Shown here: positions 7,083-25,786 of the stretch, piece by piece
Layout of the letters: every line of letters starts with the position of its first letter
How positions within the stretch are numbered: position 1 is the stretch's first letter
NCBI RefSeq assembly: GCF_017876815.1
Contig: NZ_JAGIOS010000002.1
Span: 360,001 to 392,000 of the forward strand
Source: Sinorhizobium meliloti
GTDB taxonomy: Bacteria > Pseudomonadota > Alphaproteobacteria > Rhizobiales > Rhizobiaceae
Length of the DNA: 32,000 nucleotides
Direction of reading: 5' to 3'
Notes under the pieces: model-generated
The model's input: the letters and a program-made list of their open reading frames with translations, nothing else
Told to the model about the DNA's origin: nothing
Databases searched by the model: none
Translations under genes and position numbers: made by a program

Positions 7083-7286
7083 CTACCGCAGCATGTCGTC
7101 GTCCTGCCGGGCCATGCGGCCGTCGAGTAACCCCAAGTCCTTTTTCATGTATTCGGATGTGGATTCAAGGTCGAGGCTTAAGCTCCGGCCTCTTATGCGG
7201 CGCAGCGCCGAAGCGGCAAACCGGATGATCCCGTTCACTGGGAGAATCGGTTTTCTTTCAGTATATTCCAATGTATCGCAAGACAT
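7083..7286 (-). CDS. Small DUF1127-like protein (tentative)
   Basis: Track ORF 7083..7376 trimmed to the internal ATG at 7286 (67 aa). The C-terminal half, LRRIRGRSLSLDLESTSEYMKKDLGLLDGRMAR, resembles the R-x-R..L..LSD..LKDIGL.R pattern of DUF1127. It is divergent from a LysR gene, a common rhizobial pairing. Confidence 0.4.
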   Translation of the reverse strand: MSCDTLEYTERKPILPVNGIIRFAASALRRIRGRSLSLDLESTSEYMKKDLGLLDGRMARQDDDMLR

Positions 7287-7394
7287 CTGAGCACCCTTGG
7301 CAAGCGGTGAAGTTGACTTGCAGCATGCCCCGATAGATGCTCGGATTCCAATCGAACATCCGTCTGTATGCATCAAGAGAACTTATCCATGAAG

Positions 7395-8288: not shown

Positions 8289-8304
8289 GCCTGTAGCGTG
8301 GATT

Positions 8305-8337
8305 GCCGAGAACGCCCCTTTCCCGTTTCGGCTTTTT
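8305..8337 (+). terminator. Rho-independent terminator-like hairpin after the LysR gene
   Basis: GCCGAGAACG (8305-8314) pairs with CGTTTCGGC (8324-8332) with one bulge, followed by TTTTT (8333-8337). It lies only 40 nt upstream of the puuD start. Confidence 0.55.
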
Positions 8338-8376
8338 CTCGCAAGCTGCGTCAACGGAGAGAAAGAGGGGACCCGA

Positions 8377-9609
8377 ATGTATGAATTCGCCATTGCCTGG
8401 GAATGGCTGGCCTTCGCCGTACGCTGGCTGCATGTCGTCACCGCCATCGCCTGGATCGGCTCGTCCTTCTATTTCATCGCGCTCGATCTCGGTCTCGTAA
8501 AGCGCGACCAGCTGCCCCCGGGCACCTATGGCGAGGAATGGCAGGTCCATGGCGGGGGTTTCTATCACATCCAGAAATATCTGGTGGCGCCAGCCGCCAT
8601 GCCGGAGCACCTCACCTGGTTCAAGTGGGAGTCCTACGCGACCTGGCTCTCGGGCTTCGCCATGCTCTGCATCGTCTATTATGGCGGCGCCGACCTCTTT
8701 CTCATAGACCGGCATGTCCTGGACATTTCGGCGACGACCGCGATCCTGATCTCGCTTGCCTCGCTCGGTCTCGGCTGGGTCCTCTATGACCTTCTCTGCA
8801 AGTCACCGATCGGGAAAAGCGCCTGGGGACTGATGGCACTGCTCTATCTGGTACTGGTCGCCATGGCCTGGGGTTATACCCAGGTCTTCACCGGCCGCGC
8901 CGCCTTCCTGCATCTCGGCGCCTTCACCGCCACGATCATGTCGGCCAACGTCTTCCTGATCATCATCCCCAACCAGAAGATCGTCGTCGCCGACCTGATC
9001 GCCGGCCGCATGCCGGATCCAAGACTCGGCGCCCAGGCGAAGCAGCGCTCGCTGCACAACAACTACCTGACGCTGCCCGTCATCTTCTTCATGCTCTCAA
9101 ACCATTATCCGCTCGCCTTCGCGACGGCTTTCAACTGGATCATCGCAGCGCTCGTCTTCCTGATGGGCGTTACGATCCGTCATTGGTTCAACACCACGCA
9201 TGCGCGCAAGGGCAGGCCCACCTGGACCTGGCTTGTCACCACGCTTCTGTTCATCCTGATCATGTGGCTCTCGACCGCGCCGAAAATACTGACGGGAGAA
9301 GAACGGGCCGACACGGCACCGGCCTTCCGGCGCTTTGCCGAAAACGCGCATTTTCCCGCAATCAAGGAGACGATCTCGACCCGCTGCAGCATGTGCCACG
9401 CGGCCGAGCCGGCCTATGAAGGAATTGTGCGGGCTCCGAACGGCGTCACGCTCGAAAGCGACGCCGAGATTGCTGCCCGCGCGCGGGAAATCTATATCCA
9501 GGCGGGGCGCAGCCATGCCATGCCGCCCGGCAACATAAGCGACATGACGGCGGAAGAGCGCAGGCTGGTGACGGCCTGGTTCGAAAGCGCCGTCGGGGAG
9601 ACACGATGA
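8377..9609 (+). CDS. puuD: Membrane-bound cytochrome-c urate hydroxylase (PuuD/DUF989 type)
   Basis: Track ORF 8098..9609 trimmed to ATG 8377 (GAGAAAGAGGGG upstream). Multi-pass membrane domain with WLHVVTAIAWIGSSFYFIALD and WQVHGGGFYHIQKY, plus a C-terminal haem-c motif CSMCH. Confidence 0.85.
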   Translation: MYEFAIAWEWLAFAVRWLHVVTAIAWIGSSFYFIALDLGLVKRDQLPPGTYGEEWQVHGGGFYHIQKYLVAPAAMPEHLTWFKWESYATWLSGFAMLCIVYYGGADLFLIDRHVLDISATTAILISLASLGLGWVLYDLLCKSPIGKSAWGLMALLYLVLVAMAWGYTQVFTGRAAFLHLGAFTATIMSANVFLIIIPNQKIVVADLIAGRMPDPRLGAQAKQRSLHNNYLTLPVIFFMLSNHYPLAFATAFNWIIAALVFLMGVTIRHWFNTTHARKGRPTWTWLVTTLLFILIMWLSTAPKILTGEERADTAPAFRRFAENAHFPAIKETISTRCSMCHAAEPAYEGIVRAPNGVTLESDAEIAARAREIYIQAGRSHAMPPGNISDMTAEERRLVTAWFESAVGETR

Positions 9610-10922
9610 CATCCACCCTCATTCGCGGCCGCCTGCTGAGCTTCCATCGCGAACCTCAAGGTATCGACGACAGTGCTGCCTATGCCTACGAAAGCGACGG
9701 CGCGCTTCTCGTCGAGAACGGGGTGATCAAGGCATCCGGCTCCTATGCAGCGGTCAAGGCGGCAGCGCCTGAGGAGGTCCCCGAGATCGACCACCGCCCG
9801 CACCTGATCGTGCCGGGCCTCATCGACACGCATCTGCATTTTCCGCAGATGCAGGTGATGGCCTCCTACGCGGCCGATCTGCTCGAATGGCTGAACACCT
9901 ACACCTTTCCCGAGGAATGCCGTTTCGTCGAGACGGCGCATGCGGAGCGGATCGCCCGCCATTTCTTCGACGAGATGATCCGCCACGGCACGACGACGGC
10001 GACGGCCTACTGTTCGGTGCACAAGACCTCCGCCGACGCCTTCTTCGCCGAGAGCCTGAAGCGCGGCATGTGCATGGTCGCAGGCAAGGTGATGATGGAC
10101 CGCAATGCGCCGCAGGGCCTGCTCGACACGCCGGAGATGAGCTATGACGAGACCCGCGCCCTCATCGCCGACTGGCACGGCAAAGGCCGCAACCATGTGG
10201 CTATCACCCCCCGTTTCGCCATCACTTCCACGCCGGAGCAGATGGAGGTCGCGAAATCTCTCGTCGGCGAATTTCCCGACCTGCATGTGCAGACGCATCT
10301 CTCCGAGAACCGTGACGAAATCGCCTACACCTCGGAACTCTATCCGGAGGCGACCGACTATACCGACGTCTACGCCCGCTACGGGCTGCTGGGGCCGAAA
10401 AGCCTGTTCGGACATTGCATCCACCTCTCCGAGCGCGAGGCGGATGCGATGAGCGAGACCGGCTCGGTCGCCGTCTTCTGCCCGACGTCCAATCTCTTCC
10501 TCGGCTCCGGCCTTTTTCCCCTGCGGGCGCTCAAGCGCCGGCAAAAACCGGTGCGCGTTTCCGTCGCCTCGGACATCGGCGGCGGCACCAGCTACTCGAT
10601 GCTGAAGACGCTCGACGAGGCCTACAAGATCCTGCAGTTGCAGGGCGAAAGGCTGAACCCCTTCGACAGCTTCTACATGATGACCCGCGGCAATGCCGAG
10701 GCGCTATCTCTCGCCGACCGTATCGGCACGCTGGAGCCCGGCACCGATGCGGACATTGCGGTACTCGACATGGCGGCAACGCCTGCAATGGCGCTCAGAG
10801 CCGAAGTGGTCAATTCGCTGGCCGACGAACTCTTTCTCCTGCAGACGATGGGCGACGACCGCGCCGTCGTCGAGACCTACGTCGCCGGCAAGCCCTGCAA
10901 ATCAACCCTTGGCGCAACCTGA
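9606..10922 (+). CDS. guaD: Guanine deaminase (amidohydrolase superfamily)
   Basis: 438 aa. PGLIDTHLHFPQ (HxH), HLSEN and SDIGGG motifs. ATGA start/stop overlap with puuD at 9606-9609. Confidence 0.9.
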   Translation: MTSTLIRGRLLSFHREPQGIDDSAAYAYESDGALLVENGVIKASGSYAAVKAAAPEEVPEIDHRPHLIVPGLIDTHLHFPQMQVMASYAADLLEWLNTYTFPEECRFVETAHAERIARHFFDEMIRHGTTTATAYCSVHKTSADAFFAESLKRGMCMVAGKVMMDRNAPQGLLDTPEMSYDETRALIADWHGKGRNHVAITPRFAITSTPEQMEVAKSLVGEFPDLHVQTHLSENRDEIAYTSELYPEATDYTDVYARYGLLGPKSLFGHCIHLSEREADAMSETGSVAVFCPTSNLFLGSGLFPLRALKRRQKPVRVSVASDIGGGTSYSMLKTLDEAYKILQLQGERLNPFDSFYMMTRGNAEALSLADRIGTLEPGTDADIAVLDMAATPAMALRAEVVNSLADELFLLQTMGDDRAVVETYVAGKPCKSTLGAT

Positions 10923-10935
10923 GCAGAGATGAAAA

Positions 10936-10962
10936 CGAGAGGTAAGATTTTTTGACCTCTCG
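10936..10962 (+). terminator. Hairpin after guaD (possible terminator)
   Basis: CGAGAGGT (10936-10943) / ACCTCTCG (10955-10962) with an 11-nt T-rich loop, followed by CTTTCTG. Confidence 0.35.
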
Positions 10963-11036
10963 CTTTCTGCAACTATTACAAGCCCTCCGAAATCATGATA
11001 AGGGCTCGGCTGTCATTCACTCGATGAGGCCGATCC

Positions 11037-12173
11037 ATGACGCAGATTCTCGAAATACGGGACCTGAAGGCCCTGGCCAGACGGCGCGTGCCGAAGCTTT
11101 TCTTCGATTATGCGGACAGCGGCGCATGGACGGAGGGAACCTACCGCGCCAACGAGGAGGATTTCGCCGGGATCAAGCTGCGCCAGCGGGTGCTGGTCGA
11201 CATGTCCGACCGGTCGCTCGAAACGACGATGATCGGACAGAAGGTCTCGATGCCGGTCGCGCTCGCCCCCACCGGCCTGACGGGCATGCAGCATGCCGAC
11301 GGCGAGATGCTGGCGGCTCAGGCGGCCGAGGCGTTCGGCGTCCCGTTCACGCTCTCGACCATGAGCATCTGCTCGATCGAGGACGTCGCCTCGGTGACGA
11401 CGAAGCCGTTTTGGTTCCAGCTCTATGTCATGCGCGAGCGCCAGTTCGTGCTCGATCTGATCGACCGGGCCAAGGCCGCGAAGTGTTCCGCGCTCGTCCT
11501 GACGCTCGACCTGCAGATCCTCGGCCAGCGCCATAAGGACCTTCGCAACGGCCTGTCCGCGCCGCCGCGACTGACGCCGAAACACCTCTGGATGATGGCG
11601 ACGCGGCCCGGCTGGTGCATGAAGATGCTCGGCACCAACCGCCGCACCTTCCGCAACATCGTCGGCCACGCCAAGAGCGTCGCCGACCTCTCCTCGCTTC
11701 AGGCCTGGACGAACGAGCAGTTCGACCCGCAGCTTTCCTGGAAGGACGTCGAGTGGATCAAGGAGCGCTGGGGCGGTCCGCTGATCCTCAAGGGCATTCT
11801 CGATCCGGAAGACGCAAAAATGGCGGCGAAGACCGGCGCCGACGCAATCATCGTCTCGAACCACGGCGGCCGCCAGCTCGACGGCGCGCATTCCTCGATC
11901 AGCATGCTGCCGCGCATCGTTGAGGCCGTCGGCGACCAGATCGAGGTACACCTCGACGGCGGCATTCGTTCCGGCCAGGACGTCCTGAAGGCGATCGCGC
12001 TCGGTGCGAAAGGCACCTATATCGGCCGCCCCTTCCTCTACGGCCTCGGCGCGCTCGGCAAGGAAGGCGTGACACTCGCGCTCGACATCATCCGCAAGGA
12101 GATGGACACGACCATGGCGCTCTGCGGCAAACGCCGCATCACCGAGGTCGGCCGCGACATCATCGCCGAGTAG
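11037..12173 (+). CDS. lldD: FMN-dependent alpha-hydroxy-acid dehydrogenase (L-lactate dehydrogenase [cytochrome]-like)
   Basis: 378 aa. Motifs [41 protein letters not shown] and [18 protein letters not shown], typical of the glycolate oxidase/LldD family. Confidence 0.9.
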   Translation: MTQILEIRDLKALARRRVPKLFFDYADSGAWTEGTYRANEEDFAGIKLRQRVLVDMSDRSLETTMIGQKVSMPVALAPTGLTGMQHADGEMLAAQAAEAFGVPFTLSTMSICSIEDVASVTTKPFWFQLYVMRERQFVLDLIDRAKAAKCSALVLTLDLQILGQRHKDLRNGLSAPPRLTPKHLWMMATRPGWCMKMLGTNRRTFRNIVGHAKSVADLSSLQAWTNEQFDPQLSWKDVEWIKERWGGPLILKGILDPEDAKMAAKTGADAIIVSNHGGRQLDGAHSSISMLPRIVEAVGDQIEVHLDGGIRSGQDVLKAIALGAKGTYIGRPFLYGLGALGKEGVTLALDIIRKEMDTTMALCGKRRITEVGRDIIAE

Positions 12174-12251
12174 CAGGCAGGAAGCGTGTAGCGGTTTTCC
12201 ATCGGAAGTGCGTAGCTTCAAAGACTTAGAGCAGAACCGCACGTTCAGCAA
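11775..12251 (+). repeat. Left copy of a ~0.48-kb direct repeat (3' 400 nt of lldD plus 78 nt downstream)
   Basis: Read directly. It aligns with 20818-21299 in the same orientation with roughly ten point differences. It includes the downstream element GTGTAGCGGTTTTCC..AAAGACTTAGAGCAGAAC. Confidence 0.9.
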
Positions 12252-12325
12252 ACGGGCAACATCATCAGAGAGCCTATGTCACCTGCCTTGACCTCGGCGA
12301 AGCCGGAGCCCCCTTCACCCGGGGC
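12252..12325 (+). pseudogene. Fragment of an NDH-2-like gene (paralogous to 24946-25018)
   Basis: ACGGGCAACATCATCAGAGAGCCTATGTCACCTGCCTTGACCTCGGCGAAGCCGGAGCCCCCTTCACCCGGGGC versus ACGGCAATATCATCAGAAAGCCTATGTCACCTGCCTTGACCTCGGCGATGCCGGAGCCCTTTTTACCCGGGGC in the intact gene. About 90 percent identity by eye, same orientation, with no start and no continuation. Confidence 0.75.
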
Positions 12326-12418
12326 CGGTCGATGGCGTGACCCTCGAAAATCTCGGGTCCGAGCGCGGTAGCCGGTTACGGGCGATATTGGGCAGAGAGC
12401 CTTGAGAATGGTCGACAC

Positions 12419-13399
12419 TCATGCGTGCTCCAATGCGAATGTCGCTGTTGCCTCGTCGGTGACGAGGACATTGACCAGGCCGGCGCGAAGCACGCCAAGG
12501 ACGACGTTGAATTTTTCGCTACCGGCCGCGATGCCGATAGCCTTTCCACTCGTCTTCAGATCGGAAAGCGAAAGGCCGATCGTGCGGGCATCCAATTCCG
12601 CGTCGACGATCTCGCCATTGACATCGATGAAACGGCCAAGGACATCGCCCACCGCACCTTTTGAAAGAAGCGTCGCCAGTTCGTCCCTCAAAATGTTGCC
12701 CGAGCGGACAAGGACCGATTCTTCGCTCAGGCTTCCGCAAGAAAAAATGAGAATTTGTGCCGAGCGCGCCTTGGTCAGAACATCGGCGACGATCCGGTCG
12801 CGTTCGAGCACCTCACGGGTGACGCGCTGGCCGACAATTGCCGGCACTGGCAGCGGCACAAGGCGGGCACCTGCCTTGCGTGCGAAGATCCCGGCGACAT
12901 CGTTATGATACGTGACGCCGGAAATGGGTGCGACCGTTCCATTGATCTGTACGACCTCGCCGCCATCGCTCCATTGAAGCGGAAGCCAATGGGCAACGGC
13001 GCCCATCGTACGCCCCCAGGAAACGCCCACGGTTGCGCCATTGGATTTGATAGAAGCAATGTACTGGCCGGCGGCTTGAGCGACGGTGTCCAAACTCTGC
13101 GCCTGTTCGCCGTCGCTGGAAACCACGACGGAATCGTTCAGGTTGAAGGTTTGTTGCAAGGCGGTTTCCAGGTCGGGGCGGCGCGGCGAGCGTGGAATGA
13201 TTTCGATGCGCACGATGCCGAGGTCGCGCGCCTCCTGCAGGAGACGGCTAACCTGCCAGCGGTTCAACCCGGTCTCAGCAGCGATTTCCGACTGATTCAG
13301 TTCCTGTTGGTAGGTCATGCGCGCAACCTTGACCATCAGGTGCTCGCGGCTTTCGTCCATCGGCAGGCGATTGCTGACGCGTTCGCTTTCGTCTTTCAT
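12419..13399 (-). CDS. SorC-family (sugar-binding) transcriptional regulator
   Basis: 326 aa. N-terminal HTH SQSEIAAETGLNRWQVSRLLQEARDLGIVRIEI plus a C-terminal SorC/DeoR(Bacillus-type) sugar-phosphate-binding domain. ATGA overlap with the kinase stop at 13396-13399. Confidence 0.85.
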   Translation of the reverse strand: MKDESERVSNRLPMDESREHLMVKVARMTYQQELNQSEIAAETGLNRWQVSRLLQEARDLGIVRIEIIPRSPRRPDLETALQQTFNLNDSVVVSSDGEQAQSLDTVAQAAGQYIASIKSNGATVGVSWGRTMGAVAHWLPLQWSDGGEVVQINGTVAPISGVTYHNDVAGIFARKAGARLVPLPVPAIVGQRVTREVLERDRIVADVLTKARSAQILIFSCGSLSEESVLVRSGNILRDELATLLSKGAVGDVLGRFIDVNGEIVDAELDARTIGLSLSDLKTSGKAIGIAAGSEKFNVVLGVLRAGLVNVLVTDEATATFALEHA

Positions 13400-14925
13400 A
13401 CTCTCTCCGTCCGTGTGCTTTCGACGTTACCGGAAAGCCTATGGAAGACGGGCGTCAGGACATCCGTTGCTTCGCGGTAGTCGGCAAACATAGCGAGATA
13501 TTGTCTGTGACGATTGAAATCAGGCGTTCTTTTCACGACAGGCGCGCGCAACGCATGCGCCGCGGTCGTCAGGTCTGGAAACAGTCCAAGCGCCACCGTA
13601 CAGGCGACGGCGCCGCCATGCAGCGAAAGGTTGTCATCGAGCGCAAGCTCCACGGGCTTACCTATTGCATCGATGGTTGCTTCGAGCCAGAGACGGTTTT
13701 TCATGATGCCGCCAGACATGACGATCCGGTCGATCGCCACCCCTTGCTTTTCCAGATCGAAGACGACATTCGCCGCCCCGAGTGCGACCGCAGTCACAGT
13801 AGCACGGTAGATGCTGGCCCGGTCGTGAGACAGCGACAAACCCAAAAAGGCGCCCCGCAGCCGTGCATCCCGGTAGGGTGTACGGTTGCCCATCCAATAA
13901 TCCAGCGCCAGGAGCCCGGTGGAATCCGGCTCGATTGCGTCAGCGGCCGCGCAAAGTGATCGGAAGCCGGCATCATCAAGCCCGAAGATGGTGTTGCTCA
14001 GCCACTGAAGAATGGAACCAGCCGAGACCTGGCCGCCCTCGATCATTCGCAAGCCGGGCGTCAAGGCGTTGGGGTAAGGACCCCAGACCCCGCGGATATT
14101 ACGCCCGTCATCCGGTACCTGCGTGAGGTGGACATTCGATGTCCCGCCGATGAACAGCATGGAGCCTGGCGTCACCGCGTCGGCACCGAATGTTCCCATA
14201 TGCGCGTCTATGCCACCCTGCACCACGACAGGATTACCCGGAATGCCAAGCGTACGTGCCATCTCGGGAAGCATGGGAGCGACGACGTCCCCGATGTCCA
14301 CAATTCGCTGCGGAAGCTTGGCACCAAGGTCCGGCACGCCGAGCAGAGCATAGAGATCCTCGCAGAATTTGCGGTTCCGGCTATCGTAGTTCCACTTGCA
14401 TGTGGCATTCATCAGAGAGCCGGCCCATACACCGGTTAACCTGTGATTGACGAAATCCAGAGCCTCGCAAATGACTTCCGTGCGCGCCCAGAGGTCCGGC
14501 TTTCGGCGCGCGAACCACATGGCTTTCGGGACCAGCCACTCGACCGCATCCGAACCACCGCTGTCTGCGAGAATGGGGTGGTCCACGGTTTCAGTGAACG
14601 CGGCTTCGTCGGCCGCGCGTGCGTCCATCCAGAGGACGGCAGGGGCAATCGGCTTGCCAGACCGGTCGCAGAGTACAACCGTCGAGGCGAAGGTCGCTAC
14701 ACAAACCGCAGCGATATCGGGCGAACCGGCCTTTGCAACGACATCGGGGACGAGCGAGACGAGCGCGGTCATCCAGTCTTCAGGATTCTGCTCGGCGCGG
14801 TTGGGCGGAAGATGCTGCGTTCTGTAAGTCGCCTCGCCACGCGCAACGATGTGGTTCGTCTGCGTGTCGAAGATCGCTGCCCTCGCGCCGCCGGTTCCAA
14901 AATCCAGACTGAGAACTGCGACCAT
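13396..14925 (-). CDS. FGGY-family carbohydrate kinase (pentulose/polyol kinase-like)
   Basis: 509 aa. Motifs LSLDFGTGGARAAIFD, NPEDWM, GGIDAHMG, FIGGTSNVH, EGGQVSAGSILQWL and MSGGIMKN. It is clearly distinct from the glpK at 172-1665. Confidence 0.85.
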   Translation of the reverse strand: MVAVLSLDFGTGGARAAIFDTQTNHIVARGEATYRTQHLPPNRAEQNPEDWMTALVSLVPDVVAKAGSPDIAAVCVATFASTVVLCDRSGKPIAPAVLWMDARAADEAAFTETVDHPILADSGGSDAVEWLVPKAMWFARRKPDLWARTEVICEALDFVNHRLTGVWAGSLMNATCKWNYDSRNRKFCEDLYALLGVPDLGAKLPQRIVDIGDVVAPMLPEMARTLGIPGNPVVVQGGIDAHMGTFGADAVTPGSMLFIGGTSNVHLTQVPDDGRNIRGVWGPYPNALTPGLRMIEGGQVSAGSILQWLSNTIFGLDDAGFRSLCAAADAIEPDSTGLLALDYWMGNRTPYRDARLRGAFLGLSLSHDRASIYRATVTAVALGAANVVFDLEKQGVAIDRIVMSGGIMKNRLWLEATIDAIGKPVELALDDNLSLHGGAVACTVALGLFPDLTTAAHALRAPVVKRTPDFNRHRQYLAMFADYREATDVLTPVFHRLSGNVESTRTERV

Positions 14926-14967
14926 CCCTAACTTGCCTCCCTGTTTGCCCCACCGTCTCCCGAACGA

Positions 14968-15987
14968 TCAGGGGCGGAACAGCACTTTTGAGAAGTGCAG
15001 GTCCTTCGCCGCGAAGCGCTGAAAGATACCAGGCAGTTCGGCAAGGTCGAGATCATGCGAGATCATGAATTCCCACTTCAGTTCCCCGGTCGCGAATTTT
15101 TGGACGGTTGTCGTCCACTGCGGGCCGGGAAAAGGCGCACCGAAACTGTTCCACGAGCCGTGCAGTGAAACTTCCTGACGCAGGAATCTCTGGAACGTCG
15201 CGTTCGACAGCTTCACATCGGGGACAGGTATCCCGATAAACGTGACATGTCCGCCCGGCGCAGCCAGCATGACGGCAGCGTTGATCGTCGAATCGATACC
15301 GACGGCCTCGATCACAAGATCGGCTCGTTCCTTGTTGTCGGCAAAATCGGCAGACAGGATGCATAGATCGGCGCCCGCCTGACGCGCCAAGGCGAGTTTC
15401 TCTTCCGTGACATCGACGGCGATCACTCTCGAGGCCCCCATGATGCGCATCCACTGGATCGCGAACAGACCGATCGGGCCGCACCCGACGACGGCCCCGG
15501 TCTGGCCGGCCGTTATACCGCCGGCCTTCCAGATGGCATGGAGAGCGATCGAGGCAGGGTCGGTCATGGCGATAGCCCTGGGATCGACGTGCTGCGGTGT
15601 CTTGATGAGATTTTCGACGGGGACGGCGACAAATTCCGCATAAGCGCCGTCGCGGCGGCTACCGAAGTAATCATAGTCGCGGCATCGGGAAAAATTGCCT
15701 GTCTTGCATTCTATGCATTGATTGCACGGCATCAGCGGCGCAATAGCGGTCAGCTCGCCGATTTCCCAGCCTTCGACGTTTTCACCGAGCGCATGGATAT
15801 GGCCGGAAAACTCGTGGCCTGTGATGAGAGGCATCTTCCATGCGCCCTTGACCAGCATGCGGGGCAGATCCGACCCACACACGCCGACGGATGCGACGCG
15901 CAGCAGGACCTCTCCGGGGCCGGCCACCGGCTTTGGCCGCTTTTCAAGCCGTATATCGCCCGGGGCGTGGAGCACGATGGCTCGCAT
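14968..15987 (-). CDS. Zn-dependent medium-chain dehydrogenase, GatD (galactitol-1-phosphate 5-dehydrogenase)/sorbitol dehydrogenase-like
   Basis: Track ORF 14968..16056 trimmed to ATG 15987 (AGGAGA 6 nt upstream; N-terminus MRAIVLHAPGDIRLE). Motifs CGSDLPR, GHEFSG, CNQCIECKTGNFSRCRDYDYFGSRRDGAYAEF, GCGPIG and GSWNSFGAPFPGPQW. Confidence 0.85.
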   Translation of the reverse strand: MRAIVLHAPGDIRLEKRPKPVAGPGEVLLRVASVGVCGSDLPRMLVKGAWKMPLITGHEFSGHIHALGENVEGWEIGELTAIAPLMPCNQCIECKTGNFSRCRDYDYFGSRRDGAYAEFVAVPVENLIKTPQHVDPRAIAMTDPASIALHAIWKAGGITAGQTGAVVGCGPIGLFAIQWMRIMGASRVIAVDVTEEKLALARQAGADLCILSADFADNKERADLVIEAVGIDSTINAAVMLAAPGGHVTFIGIPVPDVKLSNATFQRFLRQEVSLHGSWNSFGAPFPGPQWTTTVQKFATGELKWEFMISHDLDLAELPGIFQRFAAKDLHFSKVLFRP

Positions 15988-16089
15988 GGCGTCTCCTGTT
16001 AGCATCTGCGTCATTTGGTTACCTTTGCTAGGACAGCTGTCGTGACAATTAATCACATGCGGGAATTTTCGCGACGTGGACCGGTCGAA

Positions 16090-16109
16090 GGGCGGCCTTC
16101 ATGCCGCCC
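16090..16109 (-). other. Intra-operon GC hairpin between the permease and dehydrogenase genes
   Basis: GGGCGGC-CTTCAT-GCCGCCC. There is no U-tract on the minus strand. It lies 56 nt after the permease stop and ~100 nt before the dehydrogenase start. Confidence 0.3.
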
Positions 16110-16164
16110 GTCTCATTAAGCTGGGCTCTGTAACTGTTACGTCGTTATCTGCCGGAGAATGATT

Positions 16165-17160
16165 TCATCGCTTCAGAGAGCCGGTGCTGTACTGCAACAG
16201 CATGGCAACGACGATGATCGCTCCCATATAAACCTGCTGGTGATAGCCGGGCACGCCTGCAAGGTTCATGATGTTGGTGATAATTCCCATGACCAAAGCG
16301 CCAAGCAGCGTGTTGATGACGCCGCCCTTCCCGCCCATCAGGCTCGCCCCACCGATGACGACGGCGGCGATCACATTGAGTTCGGCCCCGATGCCGACCT
16401 GAGCAGAGCCGACGCCTGTGCGGCTCGCGGCGATGATACCTGCCAAACCGGCGAGCAAACCGGAGATCACATAGACGGCGACGATATAGCGCGGGACGGC
16501 GATACCGGAGAGTCGGACAGCCTCCTCGTTGGAACCGATTGCCGTAATGACGCGTCCGAACCGGGTGAAGTTGAGGACGACACCGCCGGCGATATAGATT
16601 GCGAACATCAAAATGACTGGTTGGGGAATGCCCAGCACGAAGCCGGAACCGAAACTGCTGAAAGCTGCGCCCGCATCGCTGAGCGGAATTGGTCGCCCCT
16701 CGGAAATGATGAGGGAAAGGCCGCGCGCGACTGCCATCATGGCAAGCGACATGACAAAGGACGGCAGCCTGAGATACGCGATGAAACCGCCCGTTACCAG
16801 GCCGCAGGCAGCGCCGCACAACAAGACAAGAAAAATGGTCGCCCCGGTGCCATAGCCTAACATCGCGCAGAAGTAGCCCGTGAGTACGGAACCCAGGGCC
16901 ATGACCGATCCAACCGAAAGGTCAATGCCGCGCGTCAGGATGACGAACAGCATGCCGACGGCCATGATGCCGGCTGTCGAGGCAACCTGCCGCAATACGT
17001 TGAGGAGGTTGCCGCGAGTGAGAAAACTGTCCGACCACCAGGTCGCTACGGCGACGAGCACGAGAAAGATGGCCAGGGTCCCGAAACGCTGAACGATGGA
17101 GTGATAGTCGACAAAACCCTTCTGTTCCGGCGGCGTCACTGTGTCTGTTGTGTGGGTCAT
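16165..17160 (-). CDS. Sugar ABC transporter permease (RbsC/AraH type)
   Basis: Track ORF 16165..17451 trimmed to ATG 17160, which overlaps the ATPase stop (ATGA at 17157-17160). 331 aa and hydrophobic throughout, with the TRGIDLSVGSVMAL signature. Confidence 0.9.
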   Translation of the reverse strand: MTHTTDTVTPPEQKGFVDYHSIVQRFGTLAIFLVLVAVATWWSDSFLTRGNLLNVLRQVASTAGIMAVGMLFVILTRGIDLSVGSVMALGSVLTGYFCAMLGYGTGATIFLVLLCGAACGLVTGGFIAYLRLPSFVMSLAMMAVARGLSLIISEGRPIPLSDAGAAFSSFGSGFVLGIPQPVILMFAIYIAGGVVLNFTRFGRVITAIGSNEEAVRLSGIAVPRYIVAVYVISGLLAGLAGIIAASRTGVGSAQVGIGAELNVIAAVVIGGASLMGGKGGVINTLLGALVMGIITNIMNLAGVPGYHQQVYMGAIIVVAMLLQYSTGSLKR

Positions 17161-18671
17161 ACCTGGCTGCCTTGGTTGCTCGCTCTGGCTCCGCCCATCA
17201 TCGACAGGCCAAGCAGATTTTCTTCCGAGTAGTTGCTGGGTGTCAGTTCGCCTCGGATCTGCCCCTGGCCCATTGCCAGAACGCGATCGCAAAGACCAAA
17301 GAGTTCCTGATGTTCTGAGGAAATCACCAGAACTGCCTTGCCGTCTTCGGCGAGCTTGTTGATCAGAGCATAGATCTCGGCCTTCGCGCCGACATCGACG
17401 CCGCGTGTGGGTTCGTCCAGAATGATAACGTCGCCACCGGCGTGAAACCATTTCGCCAGCACGACCTTCTGCTGATTGCCGCCCGACAGACTGGAAACCG
17501 GTGCATCGATACTGGAAGCCTTGAGCCGCAAGCTCTTGCCAAGTGCGGTGACGTCGGTGCGCTCCAAGGCTGGCTTGAGGAAGCCCAAGGCATTCACGAC
17601 CGACGACATCCTGGCCATCGTTGCATTGACGCGGATCGGCTTGTCGATGACGACGCCGTGCTCCTTGCGGTCTTCCGGGACGAGCCCGATACCGGCCTTC
17701 ACCGCGTCTCTGGGCGATTTGAGTTTGAGGGCCTTCCCTTTGAGGCTGATCGTGCCGCTGTCCAGCGGATCAGCGCCGAAAATCGCGCGTGCGACTTCCG
17801 TGCGGCCTGATCCGATCAGGCCTCCAAGCCCGACGATCTCGCCGGCGCGGACAGAAAAGCTGACATCGCGAACCATCCGGTCCGCATTGAGTTTTTTCAC
17901 GTTGAGCAGTTCGGCGCCGATGGTGCGCTGCGAGCGCTCCGGGAACATGTTGGCGATTGGCCGGCCGACCATCATGCGAATGATATCGTCGATCTTGACG
18001 TCCGTCGTCGCGACTGTTCCGACCGTCTCCCCATCCTTCATTACTGTCATTCGATCCGCGATATCGAACACTTCATCGAGGCGATGCGAAATATAGACGA
18101 TGCCGACTCCACGATCGCGCAGGCCCCGGATGATCTGGTGCAGTTTCATCGCATCCTGAGCACCGAGCACTGCGGTCGGTTCGTCGAAGACGATGATCTT
18201 GATGTCCTGCGAAAGCGCCTTGGCGATCTCGACCACCTGCTGGTGGGCGACGGACAGGGTGCCGACAAGGCGCCCGGGATCGATATCGAAACCCAGACGG
18301 TCGATCAGCTGTTTTGCACGTCTTCGCAGGCTGAATCGGGAAATAAGGGTCGGTAGCTCTCCAAGAAAAATGTTTTCTGCCACGCTGAGATCAGGGGCAA
18401 GGGCAAGCTCCTGGTGGATCACGACGATGCCAAGTGCGCGTGCGTCTCGAGGATCGCGAAGCTCGGTCCGCTTTCCATTAATGACGACCTCTCCCTGGCT
18501 GGGGATAATCTCGCCGCCCAGAACGCGCATAAGGGTGGATTTTCCAGCACCGTTCTCGCCGAGAAGGGCATGAACCTCCCCCGGCCACACGTCGAAATTC
18601 ACGGACCGAAGCGCGTGAATGCCCCCGAAGGACTTGGAGATTGATTTCAGATTGGCAAGTTCGGTCACCAT
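17157..18671 (-). CDS. Sugar ABC transporter ATP-binding protein (tandem ABC cassettes, RbsA-like)
   Basis: Walker A GENGAGKST and GLIGSGRTE. Signature motifs LSVAHQQ and LSGGNQQK. Walker B IIVFDEP and VIILDEP. Start set to ATG 18671 (AGGAGG upstream); the track start is 18698. Confidence 0.92.
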   Translation of the reverse strand: MVTELANLKSISKSFGGIHALRSVNFDVWPGEVHALLGENGAGKSTLMRVLGGEIIPSQGEVVINGKRTELRDPRDARALGIVVIHQELALAPDLSVAENIFLGELPTLISRFSLRRRAKQLIDRLGFDIDPGRLVGTLSVAHQQVVEIAKALSQDIKIIVFDEPTAVLGAQDAMKLHQIIRGLRDRGVGIVYISHRLDEVFDIADRMTVMKDGETVGTVATTDVKIDDIIRMMVGRPIANMFPERSQRTIGAELLNVKKLNADRMVRDVSFSVRAGEIVGLGGLIGSGRTEVARAIFGADPLDSGTISLKGKALKLKSPRDAVKAGIGLVPEDRKEHGVVIDKPIRVNATMARMSSVVNALGFLKPALERTDVTALGKSLRLKASSIDAPVSSLSGGNQQKVVLAKWFHAGGDVIILDEPTRGVDVGAKAEIYALINKLAEDGKAVLVISSEHQELFGLCDRVLAMGQGQIRGELTPSNYSEENLLGLSMMGGARASNQGSQV

Positions 18672-18758
18672 GGCCCTCCTAACAATGGCTGCAGACAACG
18701 AGGCAGGAGCCCCGTTGTCCAGTCCGCGGCGGCTTTGCAGCCTCCTGGGAGGAGCAGA

Positions 18759-19727
18759 TCAGAAAACGGCGTCGGCGCGATAATATTTGTCGACGTTTTC
18801 TTTGGTGATGACGGCCGGTGTCGTCAGATTGAGCTTCGGGAAGTCGGCTGGCAGTTCGCCGTTGACTGCTTTGAGCCCGATATCGACCGCGGTACGCGCG
18901 ACCAGGTCCGGGTCGTTAAGCCCGGTTGCCCCGTATTTGCCTTCTTTGATCAGTGCCAATGCTTCCTTCTGGCCGTCCGCAGCGGCAAGCGCGAGAACAT
19001 CTGTCTTGCCTTGTGCCTCGAGAGCCTTCATGGCGCCAAGCACCATCGAGTCGTTTTCGCCAAGAACGACATTGGCGTCCGGATGCGCGGTCAGGAGGTC
19101 TTCCATCGCGGCGAGGCCACCTTCATGGGCCCAGCCACCCCAGCCCTGGCCCACGACTTCGAAACTGACCTTGCCGTCGTTGACCAATTGGCCTTCGACA
19201 AGGCCCTTGAAAACGCCGAGGCGCCGATCGCGGCCCACTTCGTTACCCTTGTCGCCCGATAGAAGGATGATCTTCATCGGCTTGCCCTTCATGGCATTGG
19301 CAAGCCATTGGCCGACAAGCACACCGTTCTGGTCATTGGAAGAGCGAACCTGGGTGACGACGTTGGCCTTCGTGTTGATAGAGGAGTCCATGACGACGAC
19401 CTTCACGCCAGCGGCCGTTGCAGCGTCTGCGGCCGCGACAAGGCCTTCCGGATCGCGCGGGTTGAGGATCAGCAGATTAACGCCGCGCGCCACCATGTCT
19501 TCCACGTCCGCGATCTGTTTGGTCATGTCGTTCTGGCCGTCGGCGCTGGTAACTTCACAACCGGCCTTTTTGGCCTGATCTTCCGCTGCCGCCACCTGAG
19601 CGGCGAAATAAGGTGCGCCAAGCGTGTACATAGCGATGCCAACCTTGCAGTCGGCGGCGTTTGCGATGCCAGCGGAAGCGACGCTCGCCATGAGGGCCAA
19701 CATGCATCCTGCGATTGATTTCTTCAT
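18759..19727 (-). CDS. Periplasmic sugar-binding protein (RbsB-like, type I PBP)
   Basis: 322 aa. Signal peptide MKKSIAGCMLALMASVASAGIANA. GGAGGAG RBS 7 nt upstream of ATG 19727. Confidence 0.9.
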   Translation of the reverse strand: MKKSIAGCMLALMASVASAGIANAADCKVGIAMYTLGAPYFAAQVAAAEDQAKKAGCEVTSADGQNDMTKQIADVEDMVARGVNLLILNPRDPEGLVAAADAATAAGVKVVVMDSSINTKANVVTQVRSSNDQNGVLVGQWLANAMKGKPMKIILLSGDKGNEVGRDRRLGVFKGLVEGQLVNDGKVSFEVVGQGWGGWAHEGGLAAMEDLLTAHPDANVVLGENDSMVLGAMKALEAQGKTDVLALAAADGQKEALALIKEGKYGATGLNDPDLVARTAVDIGLKAVNGELPADFPKLNLTTPAVITKENVDKYYRADAVF

Positions 19728-19970
19728 GGGTAACTCCTCCGATTTCCATGAGACAGGAAGCGGTTTCGGCTTCCATTCCGTAGTTTAATTACAAGCTTCG
19801 AGATTGGTCAAGCAAAATTAACCCCATTTTTGATACTATACCACATAAGTGACAAATCGTGCGCTGCAACAAGGCGATAATGCCCCACGTTTCGCCTGCG
19901 GCAGGCGCTGGGATTTGCGCTCGCAATTTTATTTGGTAGTTTTGCTACGAAATTAGAGAACAGGAGAAAA
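19728..19970. promoter_or_regulatory. AT-rich divergent control region between the ABC/catabolic operon and the cupin PGI gene
   Basis: 243 bp, visibly AT-richer than its surroundings. Small palindromes are present, e.g. ATTTGCG-CT-CGCAATT near 19912-19927 and GGAAGC..GCTTCC at 19756-19774. Presumed SorC operator(s); none proven. Confidence 0.4.
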
Positions 19971-20600
19971 GTGTTGATATTGTTTGAGCCGGGAGTCTGT
20001 CAGGTCGATGTTGCAACAGGCCAGTTGAAGGGTGCGACGAACCGCTATGTCAAAACCTTCCGGGATCTTGCAGGGCTGTATCAGGACGAGAGCGCATATC
20101 AAGCGCTTATCGCAACCCGCGGTGATGATGTCGCCTATGAGGTTACGGACTACAAGCCATCGGCCAATGGGGGTGACATCATCATCGGCGTCACGCGCAT
20201 GGAGCCTGGGAAGATCGGTGACGAGTATTTCATGACGCGGGGCCACATCCATGCGAGGCCCAATCGGCCGGAAATGTATTATGGCGAGGCTGGCGTAGGC
20301 GTGATGCTGCTGGAATCGCCCTATGGCGAGATTCGCACGATCGAGATACGCGCGAGGACTATGTGCTATGTGCCACCCTTTTGGATCCATCGTTCTGTCA
20401 ACGTCGGCCTGGAACCACTTGTAATGACATTTTCCTATCCCGCGGATGCCGGTCAGGACTACGACGTCATTGCGAAGGCGGGGGGAATGCGGAGCCGTAT
20501 TGTCGATGACGGGAACGGTGGATGGACCACAGTCGATAACGCCGGTTATTCAGGGAGACACCCATCGCTTGTAGAAGACATCATGTCGAGAGTTGACTGA
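19971..20600 (+). CDS. Cupin-type (archaeal-type) glucose-6-phosphate isomerase
   Basis: 209 aa. EPGKIGDEYFMTRGHIHARPNRPEMYYG and CYVPPFWIHRSVNVGLEPLVMTFSYPADAGQDYDVIAKAGG align closely with Pyrococcus cPGI as I recall it (YPGKVGKEFFFTKGHFHAKLDRAEVYVA; VYVPPYWAHRTVNIGDEPFIFLAIYPADAGHDYGTIAEKGF). The His/His/Glu/His metal ligands are present. Start is GTG 19971 or TTG 19974, after GGAG at 19963-19966. Confidence 0.9.
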   Translation: MLILFEPGVCQVDVATGQLKGATNRYVKTFRDLAGLYQDESAYQALIATRGDDVAYEVTDYKPSANGGDIIIGVTRMEPGKIGDEYFMTRGHIHARPNRPEMYYGEAGVGVMLLESPYGEIRTIEIRARTMCYVPPFWIHRSVNVGLEPLVMTFSYPADAGQDYDVIAKAGGMRSRIVDDGNGGWTTVDNAGYSGRHPSLVEDIMSRVD

Positions 20601-20638
20601 AGACTGTCGGGGATCCTGTCTGGTGTTCCCCGTCACCG

Positions 20639-20668
20639 CTGGTTTGACCGCCTCATCCCTGTGCTCGT
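20639..20668 (-). repeat. Truncated copy of the two-hairpin repeat unit, cut in the hairpin loop
   Basis: CTGGTTTGACCGCCTCATCCCTGTGCTCGT is the reverse complement of 6986-7015 at 27 of 30 positions. The second hairpin arm (CACAGGGAT) is missing, and the break at 20668/20669 abuts the putative IS end. Confidence 0.7.
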
Positions 20669-20817
20669 TGTCTAGCCCGGACACATAACTGACAGGTGTT
20701 CGGGGAGATGGCTGACACGTTCATACTGGCATGGATTGGCTTCGAGAGGAGGTTGTCCATGCCGTGGAAAGAGGTGCCGGTTATGGGAGAGAGGCAGGAA
20801 TTTGTGCGGCTGGCGCT
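20669..20817 (+). mobile_element. Remnant of the 5' end of an IS element (IS481-family-like transposase start)
   Basis: GAGAGGAGG RBS followed by ATG 20759, encoding [20 protein letters not shown]. From memory this matches the conserved N-terminus of IS481-family/integrase-core transposases in rhizobia. The reading frame is cut at 20817-20819 by the lldD fragment, leaving a 22-codon stub. TGTCTAGCCCGGACAC at 20669 is a plausible terminal repeat. Confidence 0.4.
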
Positions 20818-21217
20818 GGTCCGCTGATCCTCAAGGGCATTCTCGATCCGGAAGACGCAAAAATGGCGGCGAAGAGCGGCGCCGACGCAATCATCGTCTC
20901 GAACCACGGCGGCCGCCAGCTCGACGGGCGCGCATTCCTCGATCAGCATGCTGCCGCGCATCGTCGGGGCCGTCGGCGACCAGATCGAGGTACACCTCGA
21001 CGGCGGCATTCGTTCCGGCCAGGACGTCCTGAAGGCGATCGCGCTCGGTGCGAAAGGCACCTATATCGGCCGCCCCTTCCTCTACGGCCTCGGCGCGCTC
21101 GGCAACTAAGGCGTGACACTCGCGCTCGACATCATCCGCAAGGAGATGGACACGACCATGGCGCTCTGCGGCAAACGCCGCATCACCGAGGTCGGCCGCG
21201 ACATCATTGCGGATTAG
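20818..21217 (+). pseudogene. Truncated, frameshifted copy of the lldD 3' end
   Basis: About 98 percent identical by eye to 11775-12173. There is an extra G in GACGGGCGCG (20926-20928) and an in-phase TAA at 21107-21109 (GGC AAG GAA -> GGC AAC TAA). The 5' ~740 nt are absent. Track ORF 20731..21315 reads [37 protein letters not shown] and then goes out of frame. Confidence 0.92.
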
Positions 21218-21299
21218 AGCACTCAAGGAAAGCGTGTAGCGGTTTTCCGTCGGAAGTGCGTAGGTTCAAAGACTTAGAGCAGAACGGCACGTTCGGCAA
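20818..21299 (+). repeat. Right copy of the ~0.48-kb direct repeat
   Basis: Aligns with 11775-12251, including the downstream GTGTAGCGGTTTTCC..AAAGACTTAGAGCAGAAC element. Homology ends at GTTC(A/G)GCAA. Confidence 0.9.
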
Positions 21300-21494
21300 T
21301 TTGGCGAGAGGGTGAACATCCCTCGCAATAGGCCGTCTAGTGCTTGCCGCGAGTGCCGCATCGCGGGACGCTGAAGCCCGCGTGATCGAGAACGAGGTCC
21401 AATCGCTAAGGCAACCTATCCTGGAGAATAGATTTCCCCCCTCCGGGAGTTCTTATATTTTCCCTGCGTCACAACGCGCGAAAAACCAAAGCAC

Positions 21495-21516
21495 CGCGAC
21501 ATTGCTCGCGACATTG
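21495..21516. promoter_or_regulatory. Tandem direct repeat CGCGACATTG-CT-CGCGACATTG upstream of the AraC gene
   Basis: Two perfect 10-mers (21495-21504 and 21507-21516) with a 12-bp period, 115-220 nt upstream of the candidate AraC starts. AraC-type regulators typically bind direct repeats. Confidence 0.3.
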
Positions 21517-21631
21517 GGGATCTCATGGGTAGCAGGACTGACAGTGTCGGCCATCACACGCGCATCCCCAATGATCCTGCGATTGTTGGCGGGGTCATAT
21601 GTGAGCAGCGTCAGTCAACGAGCGCGCAATT

Positions 21632-22582
21632 ATGAGCGCGCCTTGCTCCTGCAATTCCCGCGAGAGCGAGGCAGATGATTCAGCCGACGTGAGCGTAGAC
21701 GGCGTGCGGCTTGCCGATCACACACCTGCAACCGAGATGTCGCGCGTTCTGCGGACAGCACCTATTCATCTCGCGGCGGATCCCTCCGGCGGTGCAATTG
21801 CTCATTGGAACCATGGCCCCCTGCATGACGTCGTCGAGCCCATGACCGACCACGTCGTCATGGCTTACAACGGCACGATACAGCGCATGGAACGACGGTC
21901 CGGAAGGTCGGTCGAGAGTGGCACGTTTCGTCGTGGGGTTGTGATAATAATCCCGGCTGGATCGAGCTCCCGCTGGGATATTCCGAAGCCGGTTGATGTC
22001 GTTCAGCTCTATCTCCCTCACACGACACTGACACGCATTGCCGAGGCAACCGATACTTTCACGCCGACCGATCTTCTGGAGCGAACGGCGCATCCGGACC
22101 CCATTACATCTCGGTTGCTCCTGAGCGCAGCCGATGTCCTGGAAGGCAATAGGGCACTGGATACACTTTTCAGGCAACAGCTGACTGATCTTCTGGCCAC
22201 GCGCCTGCTGGCTGCACATACGGGCAAGGCGCCGAGCTATCAACCGGCGGTCGGCGGCCTGGCACCGAATGTGCTGCGCCGGGCCATCGAACGATTGCGG
22301 TCCGACGCCGATGCGGACGTCTCCCTCGCCGCCCTCGCAGCTGATTCCGGGCTGTCACGTTTTCATTTCTGTCGCGCTTTCAAGGAAAGCACGGGGCTCT
22401 CACCGCACAACTGGCTGCGTCAATATCGGCTTGAGCAAGCCATAAACATGCTGCGCAATCCTGCAAATTCGGTCGCCTCGGTCGCAGCCTCTCTCGGTTA
22501 TAACTCGCAAACAGCATTTGCAGCTGCGTTCCGCAAATTGACCGGCGAAACACCGACCGAGTGGCGGCGCAGCCACGGCTGA
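21632..22582 (+). CDS. AraC-family transcriptional regulator
   Basis: C-terminal dual HTH: SLAALAADSGLSRFHFCRAFKESTGLSPHNWLRQYRLEQA...LGYNSQTAFAAAFRKLTGETPTEWR. The start is uncertain (ATG 21632 is the longest; ATG 21737 is also possible) and neither has a strong RBS. Confidence 0.85.
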   Translation: MSAPCSCNSRESEADDSADVSVDGVRLADHTPATEMSRVLRTAPIHLAADPSGGAIAHWNHGPLHDVVEPMTDHVVMAYNGTIQRMERRSGRSVESGTFRRGVVIIIPAGSSSRWDIPKPVDVVQLYLPHTTLTRIAEATDTFTPTDLLERTAHPDPITSRLLLSAADVLEGNRALDTLFRQQLTDLLATRLLAAHTGKAPSYQPAVGGLAPNVLRRAIERLRSDADADVSLAALAADSGLSRFHFCRAFKESTGLSPHNWLRQYRLEQAINMLRNPANSVASVAASLGYNSQTAFAAAFRKLTGETPTEWRRSHG

Positions 22583-25571: not shown

Positions 25572-25786
25572 TCTCCTCGCCCTCATCTCTGTGCTTGTCA
25601 CAGAGATCCAGCGGCGCCGCGTGGGCGGCGCGGAGAACGTTCTTTCAGCCCAAGGACTTGGTCTGGCTGGATCCCTGTGACGAGCACAGGGATGAGGAGA
25701 TCAAACAAGCCGCGGCAGGAAATCCAAATCTCAACAGGCCTTAGAGCGGGATGAGGAAAGGTGTGTGCGGTCTTCCGCCCGCATCC
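25572..25786. repeat. Second mosaic repeat block: 171-bp two-hairpin unit (25572-25742) followed by the A motif (25741-25786)
   Basis: Same components as 6803-7048 but with the A motif on the other side of the unit. Perfect hairpins ATCTCTGTG-CTTGT-CACAGAGAT (25585-25607) and ATCCCTGTG-ACGAG-CACAGGGAT (25671-25693). Confidence 0.85.

Follow-up and report, generated by a model that had tools for sequence, protein, structure and literature searches.

The window examined here, a 32,000-nucleotide stretch of Sinorhizobium meliloti DNA (GCF_017876815.1, contig NZ_JAGIOS010000002.1, positions 360,001 to 392,000), belongs to pSymB and contains a seven-gene locus, SMb20851 to SMb20857, that encodes an ATP-binding cassette (ABC) importer, a GatD-like dehydrogenase, an FGGY kinase, a SorC-family repressor and, divergently, a cupin-type phosphoglucose isomerase (PGI). 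The locus is best explained as a truncated copy, acquired horizontally, of a catabolic cluster that is widespread but biochemically uncharacterised and that in many relatives is accompanied by genes for deoxyribose-phosphate aldolase (DERA) and the two-domain aldehyde dehydrogenase ALDH16. The architecture is of a known kind, an ABC transporter with a polyol dehydrogenase, a sugar kinase and a SorC regulator, and it is the conserved DERA/ALDH16 endgame that is unusual. The function put forward for the module, at somewhat less than even confidence, is import followed by dehydrogenase and kinase steps and release of the SorC repressor, ending at DERA/ALDH16 cleavage. The features of the locus, in window coordinates, are as follows.

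19974-20600, plus strand: SMb20857 (pgiA2), cupin-type PGI family; PF06560, 242.7 bits (gathering threshold 20.7)
19728-19973, no strand assigned: divergent control region between the solute-binding protein gene and the cupin PGI gene, from sequence
18759-19727, minus strand: SMb20856, CUT2 periplasmic solute-binding protein (SBP); PF13407 (Peripla_BP_4), E 1e-49
17157-18671, minus strand: SMb20855 (rbsA3), fused two-domain ABC ATPase; two ABC_tran stretches, AraG/XylG/RbsA-like, under cutoffs
16165-17160, minus strand: SMb20854, CUT2 ABC permease; PF02653 (BPD_transp_2), E 7e-38, RbsC/AraH-like
16090-16109, minus strand: GC-rich 7-bp hairpin, GGGCGGC-AUGAAG-GCCGCCC, in the 177-nt permease-dehydrogenase spacer
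14968-15987, minus strand: SMb20853, GatD-like Zn-dependent medium-chain dehydrogenase/reductase (MDR); ADH_N and ADH_zinc_N
13396-14925, minus strand: SMb20852, pentulokinase-like FGGY carbohydrate kinase; FGGY_N E 5.5e-28, FGGY_C E 2.3e-44
12419-13399, minus strand: SMb20851, SorC-family repressor (helix-turn-helix and sugar-binding domain); PF04198 (Sugar-bind), E 3.7e-61
12326-12422, minus strand: deoC 5' relic of about 32 codons with a 1-nt deletion, which overlaps the SorC stop codon as ATGA and then breaks off

Association of the dehydrogenase-kinase-SorC triad with DERA and ALDH16

A comparison set was assembled from 54 loci around dehydrogenase homologues, one genome per species, and three loci around SBP orthologues, each extending 10 kb to either side. 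Locus contents were tallied by tblastn, with the dehydrogenase counted at an identity of at least 45%, and genes in high-GC relatives were called with a GC3-based filter. The dehydrogenase is found at this level in 53 loci, 43 of which carry the full triad of dehydrogenase, kinase and SorC regulator, mostly in the same order, across Alphaproteobacteria and Actinobacteria; identities to the actinobacterial proteins are roughly 50% for the dehydrogenase and 42% for both the kinase and the SorC regulator. Of the 43 full-triad loci, 35 have a DERA gene within 10 kb, in many cases overlapping or directly adjoining the SorC stop codon (for example in loci L011, L060 and L042), and 23 encode an ALDH16 of about 790 aa near the triad.

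The aldolase of the relatives scores 152 bits with TIGR00126 (deoC), above the cutoff of 117, has E. coli DERA as its top PDB match, and keeps D102, K167, K201 and the phosphate loop in a comparison with the E. coli sequence. Their 786-aa aldehyde dehydrogenase matches PDB 6MVR/6MVU (E 8e-287), and 6MVR is presumably the structure of the Loktanella ALDH16. A review gives Loktanella sp. as the source of the solved ALDH16 and describes the C-terminal cofactor-binding domain as non-functional. Bacterial ALDH16 consistently stands directly after a long-form DERA with an N-terminal extension of about 70 residues (L003-L060; for example L011 13541-16930 and L060 19035-20969), and this position suggests that ALDH16 may oxidise DERA-derived acetaldehyde. 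Taken together with the deoC relic in the window, the conservation of DERA and ALDH16 as partners of the triad points to triose phosphate and acetaldehyde, not fructose-6-phosphate, as the probable products of the module.

A further conserved trio lies upstream of the dehydrogenase in many relatives (L005, L006, L008, L009 and L017-L023, at about 5800-9900 in each) and consists of an RpiR regulator, a third FGGY kinase and an unusual, split Zn dehydrogenase of about 579 aa, whose ADH_N and ADH_zinc_N domains are separated by about 200 residues; L006 and L018 have this trio in place of the usual kinase and SorC regulator. Pfam scans of the actinobacterial neighbour genes gave no substrate clue, and a literature search joining FGGY, deoxyribose and deoC found no paper.

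A deoC relic and a second deoC-ALDH16 locus

No DERA or ALDH16 is encoded within the window. The DNA of the deoC relic is 80% identical to L003 13513-13668, from the closest relative, a Rhizobium metagenome-assembled genome, where the aligned stretch contains the end of SorC, the ATGA overlap and the start of deoC and is translated as the N-terminus of DeoC. The relic behind SorC therefore indicates that the operon once ran on into deoC.

The same replicon carries, at a distance of about 375 kb, an intact deoR-deoC-ALDH16-rbsD/fucU cluster with products of 335 aa (DeoC) and 795 aa (ALDH16) (L057, CP090105.1 498530-502504); the annotation shows no kinase within 9 kb of this cluster. The record CP090105.1 labels this 1.66-Mb replicon 'pSymA', yet the pSymB-derived window query matches the same record at 875279-883460.

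The locus as a strain-variable island

The whole 8.6-kb module is bracketed by direct repeats of about 480 bp that are 97-99% identical, and the features at its ends were delimited from repeat families, alignment and blastn as follows.

11037-12173, plus strand: lldD1, alpha-hydroxy-acid oxidase, intact; full-length FMN_dh match
11775-12251, plus strand: left direct-repeat copy, formed by the 3' end of intact lldD1 and 78 nt downstream
20818-21299, plus strand: right direct-repeat copy, a frameshifted lldD 3' fragment (pseudogene)
12255-12328, no strand assigned: 74-nt repeat at the junction of the lldD1 repeat and the deoC relic, with a second copy at 24948-25021; blastn identity 90.5%

An artificial empty-site query, in which the two flanks were joined, matches contiguously in five replicon records, among them that of one S. 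meliloti strain, at 100% coverage and 98.5% identity, and those of two Sinorhizobium sp., at 93.8%; NZ_CP019484.1 is one of the empty-site records. In the curated metabolic model iGD1575, smb20852-55 are accessory and the flanking genes are core. The length of the repeats suggests that the island was integrated or lost by homologous recombination and not by transposition.

Dispersed 31-nt repeats of 90% identity occur at 20638-20668, 6986-7016 and 25680-25710. Together with the 74-nt repeat, they are found at or near both island ends as well as elsewhere in the window and are perhaps rhizobial intergenic repeat elements. To the left of the island, positions 1-12173 carry glpK, bdhA, xdhA2, xdhB2, a LysR regulator, a puuD-like urate hydroxylase, guaD2 and lldD1, genes of polyhydroxybutyrate and purine catabolism that have no relation to the operon; bdhA was studied in PMC5940162.

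Operon organisation

The 8.2-kb region is 100% identical to pSymB of S. meliloti SM11 and at least 99% identical to the region in 43 Sinorhizobium replicon records. Open reading frame (ORF) calls, Pfam, NCBIfam and the PGAP annotation of the identical region all give six genes on the minus strand and a single divergent gene on the plus strand. The genes for the SBP, ATPase, permease, dehydrogenase, kinase and SorC regulator form a single translationally coupled minus-strand operon, with 4-nt ATGA overlaps in the ORF coordinates at 17157-17160 (ATPase/permease) and 13396-13399 (kinase/SorC). An earlier note on this DNA, made from the letters alone, had described the same gene order including the hairpin between permease and dehydrogenase, both ATGA couplings and a cupin PGI gene opposite the SBP gene, and each of these is confirmed here.

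The Rm1021 tags SMb20851-SMb20857 were assigned through published gene lists, which give the order bdhA, xdhA2, xdhB2, smb20847, smb20848, guaD2, lldD1, smb20851 and name SMb20854-56 as a transporter, smb20852 as COG1069, smb20853 as COG1063 and SMb20857 as pgiA2.

The hairpin at 16090-16109 has no U-tract and received no call in a terminator scan, and over its full length the permease-dehydrogenase spacer shows no unusual folding stability (z = -1.37). The control region at 19728-19973 holds two weak minus-strand matches to sigma-70-like promoters, not above the shuffled expectation, and an Rfam search of 12000-22000 gave no family match.

The dehydrogenase, kinase and regulator

The best NCBIfam match of SMb20853 is GatD (NF007642), at 251 bits against an equivalog cutoff of 550, so the enzyme is GatD-like and not a GatD equivalog, and its best solved relative is E. 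coli GatD (PDB 4A2C, E 1.7e-62). The earlier note had left the choice between GatD and SorD or Tdh to placement by phylogeny or hidden Markov model, and both matches put the dehydrogenase nearer GatD. Every motif that it had named as shared with GatD is likewise present in the alignment to 4A2C: CGSDLPR, GHEFSG, the structural-zinc Cys stretch, GSRRDG and GSW...PFPGPQW.

The Zn-MDR features of the dehydrogenase (CGSD, GHE and C..C.EC...C) do not vary among 53 orthologues that are 46-100% identical, and neither do two arginines common with GatD, R43 in CGSDLPR and R111 in GSRRDG. Conservation of the arginines is suggestive only, and would fit an anionic, e.g. phosphorylated, dehydrogenase substrate. 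Beside SMb20853, neither a galactitol phosphotransferase system (PTS) nor a tagatose-1,6-bisphosphate aldolase is encoded, and its neighbours are the ABC transporter, the FGGY kinase and the SorC regulator.

The kinase SMb20852 reaches no substrate-specific FGGY equivalog cutoff in NCBIfam, with scores of 250 bits against 428 for ribulokinase, 221 against 380 for XylB, 187 against 409 for pentulose kinase and 112 against 528 for LsrK; its best PDB match, 3GG4/3L0Q (E 9e-47), is an uncharacterised Yersinia FGGY kinase. The regulator SMb20851 is closest to Bacillus DeoR both in NCBIfam (NF053881, 259 bits against a cutoff of 420) and among solved structures (B. subtilis DeoR, PDB 8R7Y, E 6.7e-44).

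The transporter and the cupin PGI

The best PDB match of SMb20856 is 4RY9 (Veis_2079), with an E-value of 8e-112, 62% identity and a TM of 0.78-0.84. SBP orthologues of 80-92% identity are widespread and adjoin DERA in Pararhizobium, Geminicoccus and Labrys. An SBP of this type occurs in 13 loci, the window included; of these, ten have DERA, 12 the dehydrogenase and nine a divergent cupin PGI, and the cupin PGI is found in none of the 44 loci that lack this SBP type. Several genomes have, after this transporter, a second XylB-like FGGY kinase, two short-chain dehydrogenases/reductases and a glycerol-dehydrogenase-like enzyme; in others, a different SBP, an orthologue of M. smegmatis MSMEI_3018 (PDB 4YV7), is embedded in the module. 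No relevant literature was found on 4RY9, 4YV7 or Veis_2079. These synteny counts indicate that the transporter and PGI constitute one unit and dehydrogenase-kinase-SorC(-DERA-ALDH16) another; in S. meliloti, the two are joined at the hairpin-containing spacer.

SMb20857 matches the PGI of P. furiosus (E 3e-41) and keeps the HxH...E...H metal ligands (GHIHA..E, IHR). The earlier note had linked this PGI to the operon as the last step of a route from ketohexose-6-phosphate to glucose-6-phosphate. The link itself is non-random, as the locus counts show, but the PGI tracks the transporter and not the dehydrogenase and kinase, and it is inferred to be a co-regulated partner of the transporter type. 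The proposed endgame is not supported, given the frequency of DERA and ALDH16 near the triad and the deoC relic, and a route to glucose-6-phosphate is probably not the main logic of the operon. The iGD1575 curators ruled out smb20857 as a glucose-6-phosphate isomerase, and SMc02163 is regarded in the literature as the most likely pgi of S. meliloti.

Earlier characterisation and phenotypes

No functional study of the locus was found, and in the four papers found to contain them the tags SMb20851-57 occur only as list entries. The statement in the earlier note that the gene combination is not a recognised pathway is borne out to the extent that the literature and synteny search gave no already characterised operon. 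The curated model iGD1575 contains only generic, annotation-derived reactions for these genes and ties the operon to no specific carbon source.

The published deletion B179 spans pSymB 1,207,052-1,322,226 and covers the operon, the right flank of which lies at 1,262,954 in Rm1021. On Biolog plates, B179 retains the use of sorbitol, mannitol, dulcitol, adonitol, D-arabitol, L-arabitol, erythritol and maltitol; xylitol is not used by wild-type S. meliloti. Since B179 loses no common polyol, the substrate is either absent from Biolog plates or redundantly catabolised.

Two other known systems were considered and rejected as identities for the locus. An autoinducer-2 (AI-2), lsr-like locus is contradicted by sub-cutoff scores for LsrB (34 bits against 384), LsrK (112 against 528) and LsrR (142 against 486), by a single permease, by the lack of LsrF and LsrG, by the presence of a Zn dehydrogenase and by the tags, which are SMb20851-57. 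The lsr-like locus had come into question because bdhA is SMb21010 and the S. meliloti LsrB is SMb21016, from which that locus runs on. The tag SMb21016 occurs only in papers on AI-2 or SBPs. The second system, SMb21372-77, a tagatose/galactitol operon for which Kohlmeier et al. 2019 is cited, is a different pSymB locus with PfkB and epimerase chemistry.

Proposed function and alternatives

In the proposed mechanism, the importer would bring in a small, linear compound that has a D-erythro tail and is either a polyol or a deoxy-sugar, for example a 2-deoxy-pentose, a 2-deoxy-pentitol, or a ribitol- or altritol-like polyol. The FGGY kinase would phosphorylate a terminal hydroxyl and the GatD-like dehydrogenase would perform one NAD-linked oxidation, in either order, with the GatD-shared arginines leaning towards a phosphorylated dehydrogenase substrate, and a phosphorylated intermediate would release the SorC repressor. 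The product would be a 2-deoxy-aldose phosphate, which DERA would cleave to glyceraldehyde-3-phosphate and acetaldehyde, and ALDH16 would oxidise the acetaldehyde. In S. meliloti, the second locus would have to provide the DERA/ALDH16 part in trans. It is a rather doubtful further step that the module represents an undescribed (deoxy)polyol pathway, leading via a polyol phosphate to DERA in Alphaproteobacteria and Actinobacteria and split in S. meliloti.

Several points weigh against this mechanism. Lys141 of DeoR is reportedly the effector lysine that binds deoxyribose-5-phosphate by a Schiff base; SMb20851 has Asn153 at this position and Asn is found in all 46 SorC regulators of the module, so that these regulators probably do not sense deoxyribose-5-phosphate in the manner of DeoR. 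The best structural match of the SBP, 4RY9, is presumably a complex with the hexitol D-talitol and not with a deoxy-sugar. GatD-type chemistry, in which oxidation at the penultimate carbon of a terminal diol yields a ketose, gives no obvious 2-deoxy-aldose and leaves the role of the dehydrogenase in a DERA pathway unexplained. No DERA lies nearby in several loci (L004, L041, L056 and the window), and the DERA of the second S. meliloti locus could have no other task than the catabolism of deoxynucleosides. In the Biolog data, wild-type S. meliloti shows hardly any respiration with 2-deoxy-D-ribose (activity value 1). Finally, the mechanism is drawn from sequence and synteny, with predicted functions for all proteins.

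One alternative, unlikely though still to be reckoned with, is a pathway of conventional order that does not involve DERA in S. meliloti, in which a free pentitol or rare hexitol would be oxidised to a ketose and then phosphorylated by the FGGY kinase to a pentulose-5-phosphate or hexulose phosphate. The threitol and erythritol pathways of M. smegmatis reportedly have the same architecture of Zn dehydrogenase, FGGY kinase, SorC regulator and CUT2 ABC transporter, the best kinase families of SMb20852 are ribulokinase and xylulokinase, the related SBPs 4RS3 and 4RSM are among the PDB matches, and the S. meliloti operon as it stands has no aldolase. A conventional order, however, leaves unexplained both the synteny of the triad with DERA, including the deoC relic, and the arginines in common with a polyol-phosphate dehydrogenase. 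It also sits poorly with the phenotypes, as the wild type does not use xylitol and B179 still uses each of adonitol, D-arabitol, L-arabitol, erythritol, sorbitol, mannitol and dulcitol.

That the island is a cryptic remnant, left as a non-functional or marginally useful passenger in S. meliloti after the loss of deoC and ALDH16, is improbable. Truncation of the operon with a deoC relic remaining, strain variability, the lack of a Biolog phenotype attributable to the operon in the region deletion and the lack of a specific carbon source in the metabolic model would all be accounted for by such decay. However, all seven genes are intact and full-length, and 43 records agree in them to at least 99% identity; the genes are still translationally coupled, a DERA-ALDH16 pair is available in trans, and rare or deoxy polyols are not on Biolog plates.

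The route favoured in the earlier note, in which an imported hexitol would be phosphorylated by the FGGY kinase, oxidised by the GatD-like enzyme to a ketohexose-6-phosphate and converted by the cupin PGI to glucose-6-phosphate for the Entner-Doudoroff pathway, is more improbable still: it draws on the GatD-like dehydrogenase with its invariant arginines, on a PGI with intact metal ligands that is syntenic with the transporter in nine of 13 loci, on the hexitol presumably bound by 4RY9, the nearest solved relative of the SBP, and on the kinase-first precedent of erythritol EryA/EryB in Brucella and Rhizobium, but the PGI accompanies the dehydrogenase-kinase pair only where the window-type SBP is present, a limit that does not apply to DERA, a deoC relic lies within the window, the kinase is pentulokinase-like, only mannitol-1-phosphate or sorbitol-6-phosphate would give fructose-6-phosphate directly, the phosphates of altritol and galactitol would lead to psicose- and tagatose-6-phosphate and need an epimerase absent here, and B179 still grows on sorbitol, mannitol and dulcitol. 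The exclusion of smb20857 as a glucose-6-phosphate isomerase in iGD1575 counts in the same direction.

Implications

We know of no physiological role assigned to ALDH16, despite its solved structure, and its conserved adjacency to DERA offers a testable one. If the route to DERA is correct, DERA would be reached from a source other than nucleosides, a bacterial ALDH16 would gain its first physiological role, and S. meliloti would have a split system composed of an uptake, kinase and dehydrogenase operon on an island and a distant deoC-ALDH16 locus. The synteny replaces the description 'galactitol-1-P dehydrogenase / ribulokinase' by a testable claim, namely that triose phosphate and acetaldehyde are formed through DERA and ALDH16, and it carries a warning for annotation, as the PGAP name 'galactitol-1-phosphate 5-dehydrogenase' for this dehydrogenase family rests on a sub-threshold match. 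S. meliloti has been heavily studied, yet phenotyping of pSymB deletions revealed no substrate for the seven-gene locus. As the island is strain-variable and repeat-flanked, strains with and without it are natural controls for growth and competition on plant-derived polyols.

Comparison with known systems

SMb20853 shares with E. coli GatD (4A2C) the Zn-dependent MDR fold and the motifs CGSDLPR, GHEFSG, GSRRDG and GSW..P.PG..W, whereas the S. meliloti locus differs from the E. coli galactitol operon in having neither a PTS (gatABC) nor a tagatose-bisphosphate aldolase (gatYZ). The partners here are instead an ABC importer, an FGGY kinase and a SorC regulator, joined ancestrally by DERA and ALDH16.

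The D-threitol, L-threitol and erythritol pathways of M. smegmatis reportedly comprise a CUT2 ABC transporter whose SBP binds polyols, along with a Zn dehydrogenase, a regulator of the SorC type and a sugar kinase. These are the same component types as in the present module, and the second SBP type of the module is orthologous to MSMEI_3018 (4YV7). The M. smegmatis pathways, however, reportedly end with TIM/RpiB-like isomerases that yield erythrose-4-phosphate, whereas the module ends with DERA and ALDH16 and no TIM/RpiB-like isomerase genes were seen here.

Agrobacterium is said to use D-altritol and galactitol through a PF00107 dehydrogenase, followed by a PfkB kinase and a PF08013 epimerase. 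This pathway and SMb21372-77, with ABC uptake of a hexitol and dehydrogenase and kinase steps to fructose-6-phosphate, are the closest precedent for the route of the earlier note, but none of the seven proteins encoded here belongs to the PfkB or PF08013 families. Kinase-first catabolism is known from the erythritol system EryA-EryB-EryD of Brucella and Rhizobium, which combines an FGGY kinase, a SorC regulator and ABC uptake, so that rhizobia do have a precedent for the order polyol, polyol phosphate, keto-phosphate following ABC import. EryB, however, resembles FAD-dependent glycerol-3-phosphate dehydrogenase and is not a Zn-MDR enzyme, and DERA has no part in that system.

The likeness to deoxyribose catabolism, as in B. 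subtilis DeoR/dra and enterobacterial deoK-deoC, lies in the DeoR-like SorC regulator and in DERA as the conserved downstream gene, and Pararhizobium has PfkB-RbsD-ALDH16-DeoC-DeoR beside the orthologous transporter. The differences are that the kinase here is of the FGGY and not the PfkB family, that a GatD-like dehydrogenase is added, that the regulator lacks Lys141 and that ALDH16 takes the place of a conventional acetaldehyde dehydrogenase. Bacterial cupin PGIs have reportedly been assayed, one of them from Ensifer meliloti. With cupin PGIs such as that of P. furiosus, SMb20857 has in common the PF06560 family, a cupin of about 190 aa and the HxH...E...H ligands, but it is linked to a sugar or polyol ABC transporter rather than to glycolysis and is not regarded as the main PGI of S. 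meliloti.

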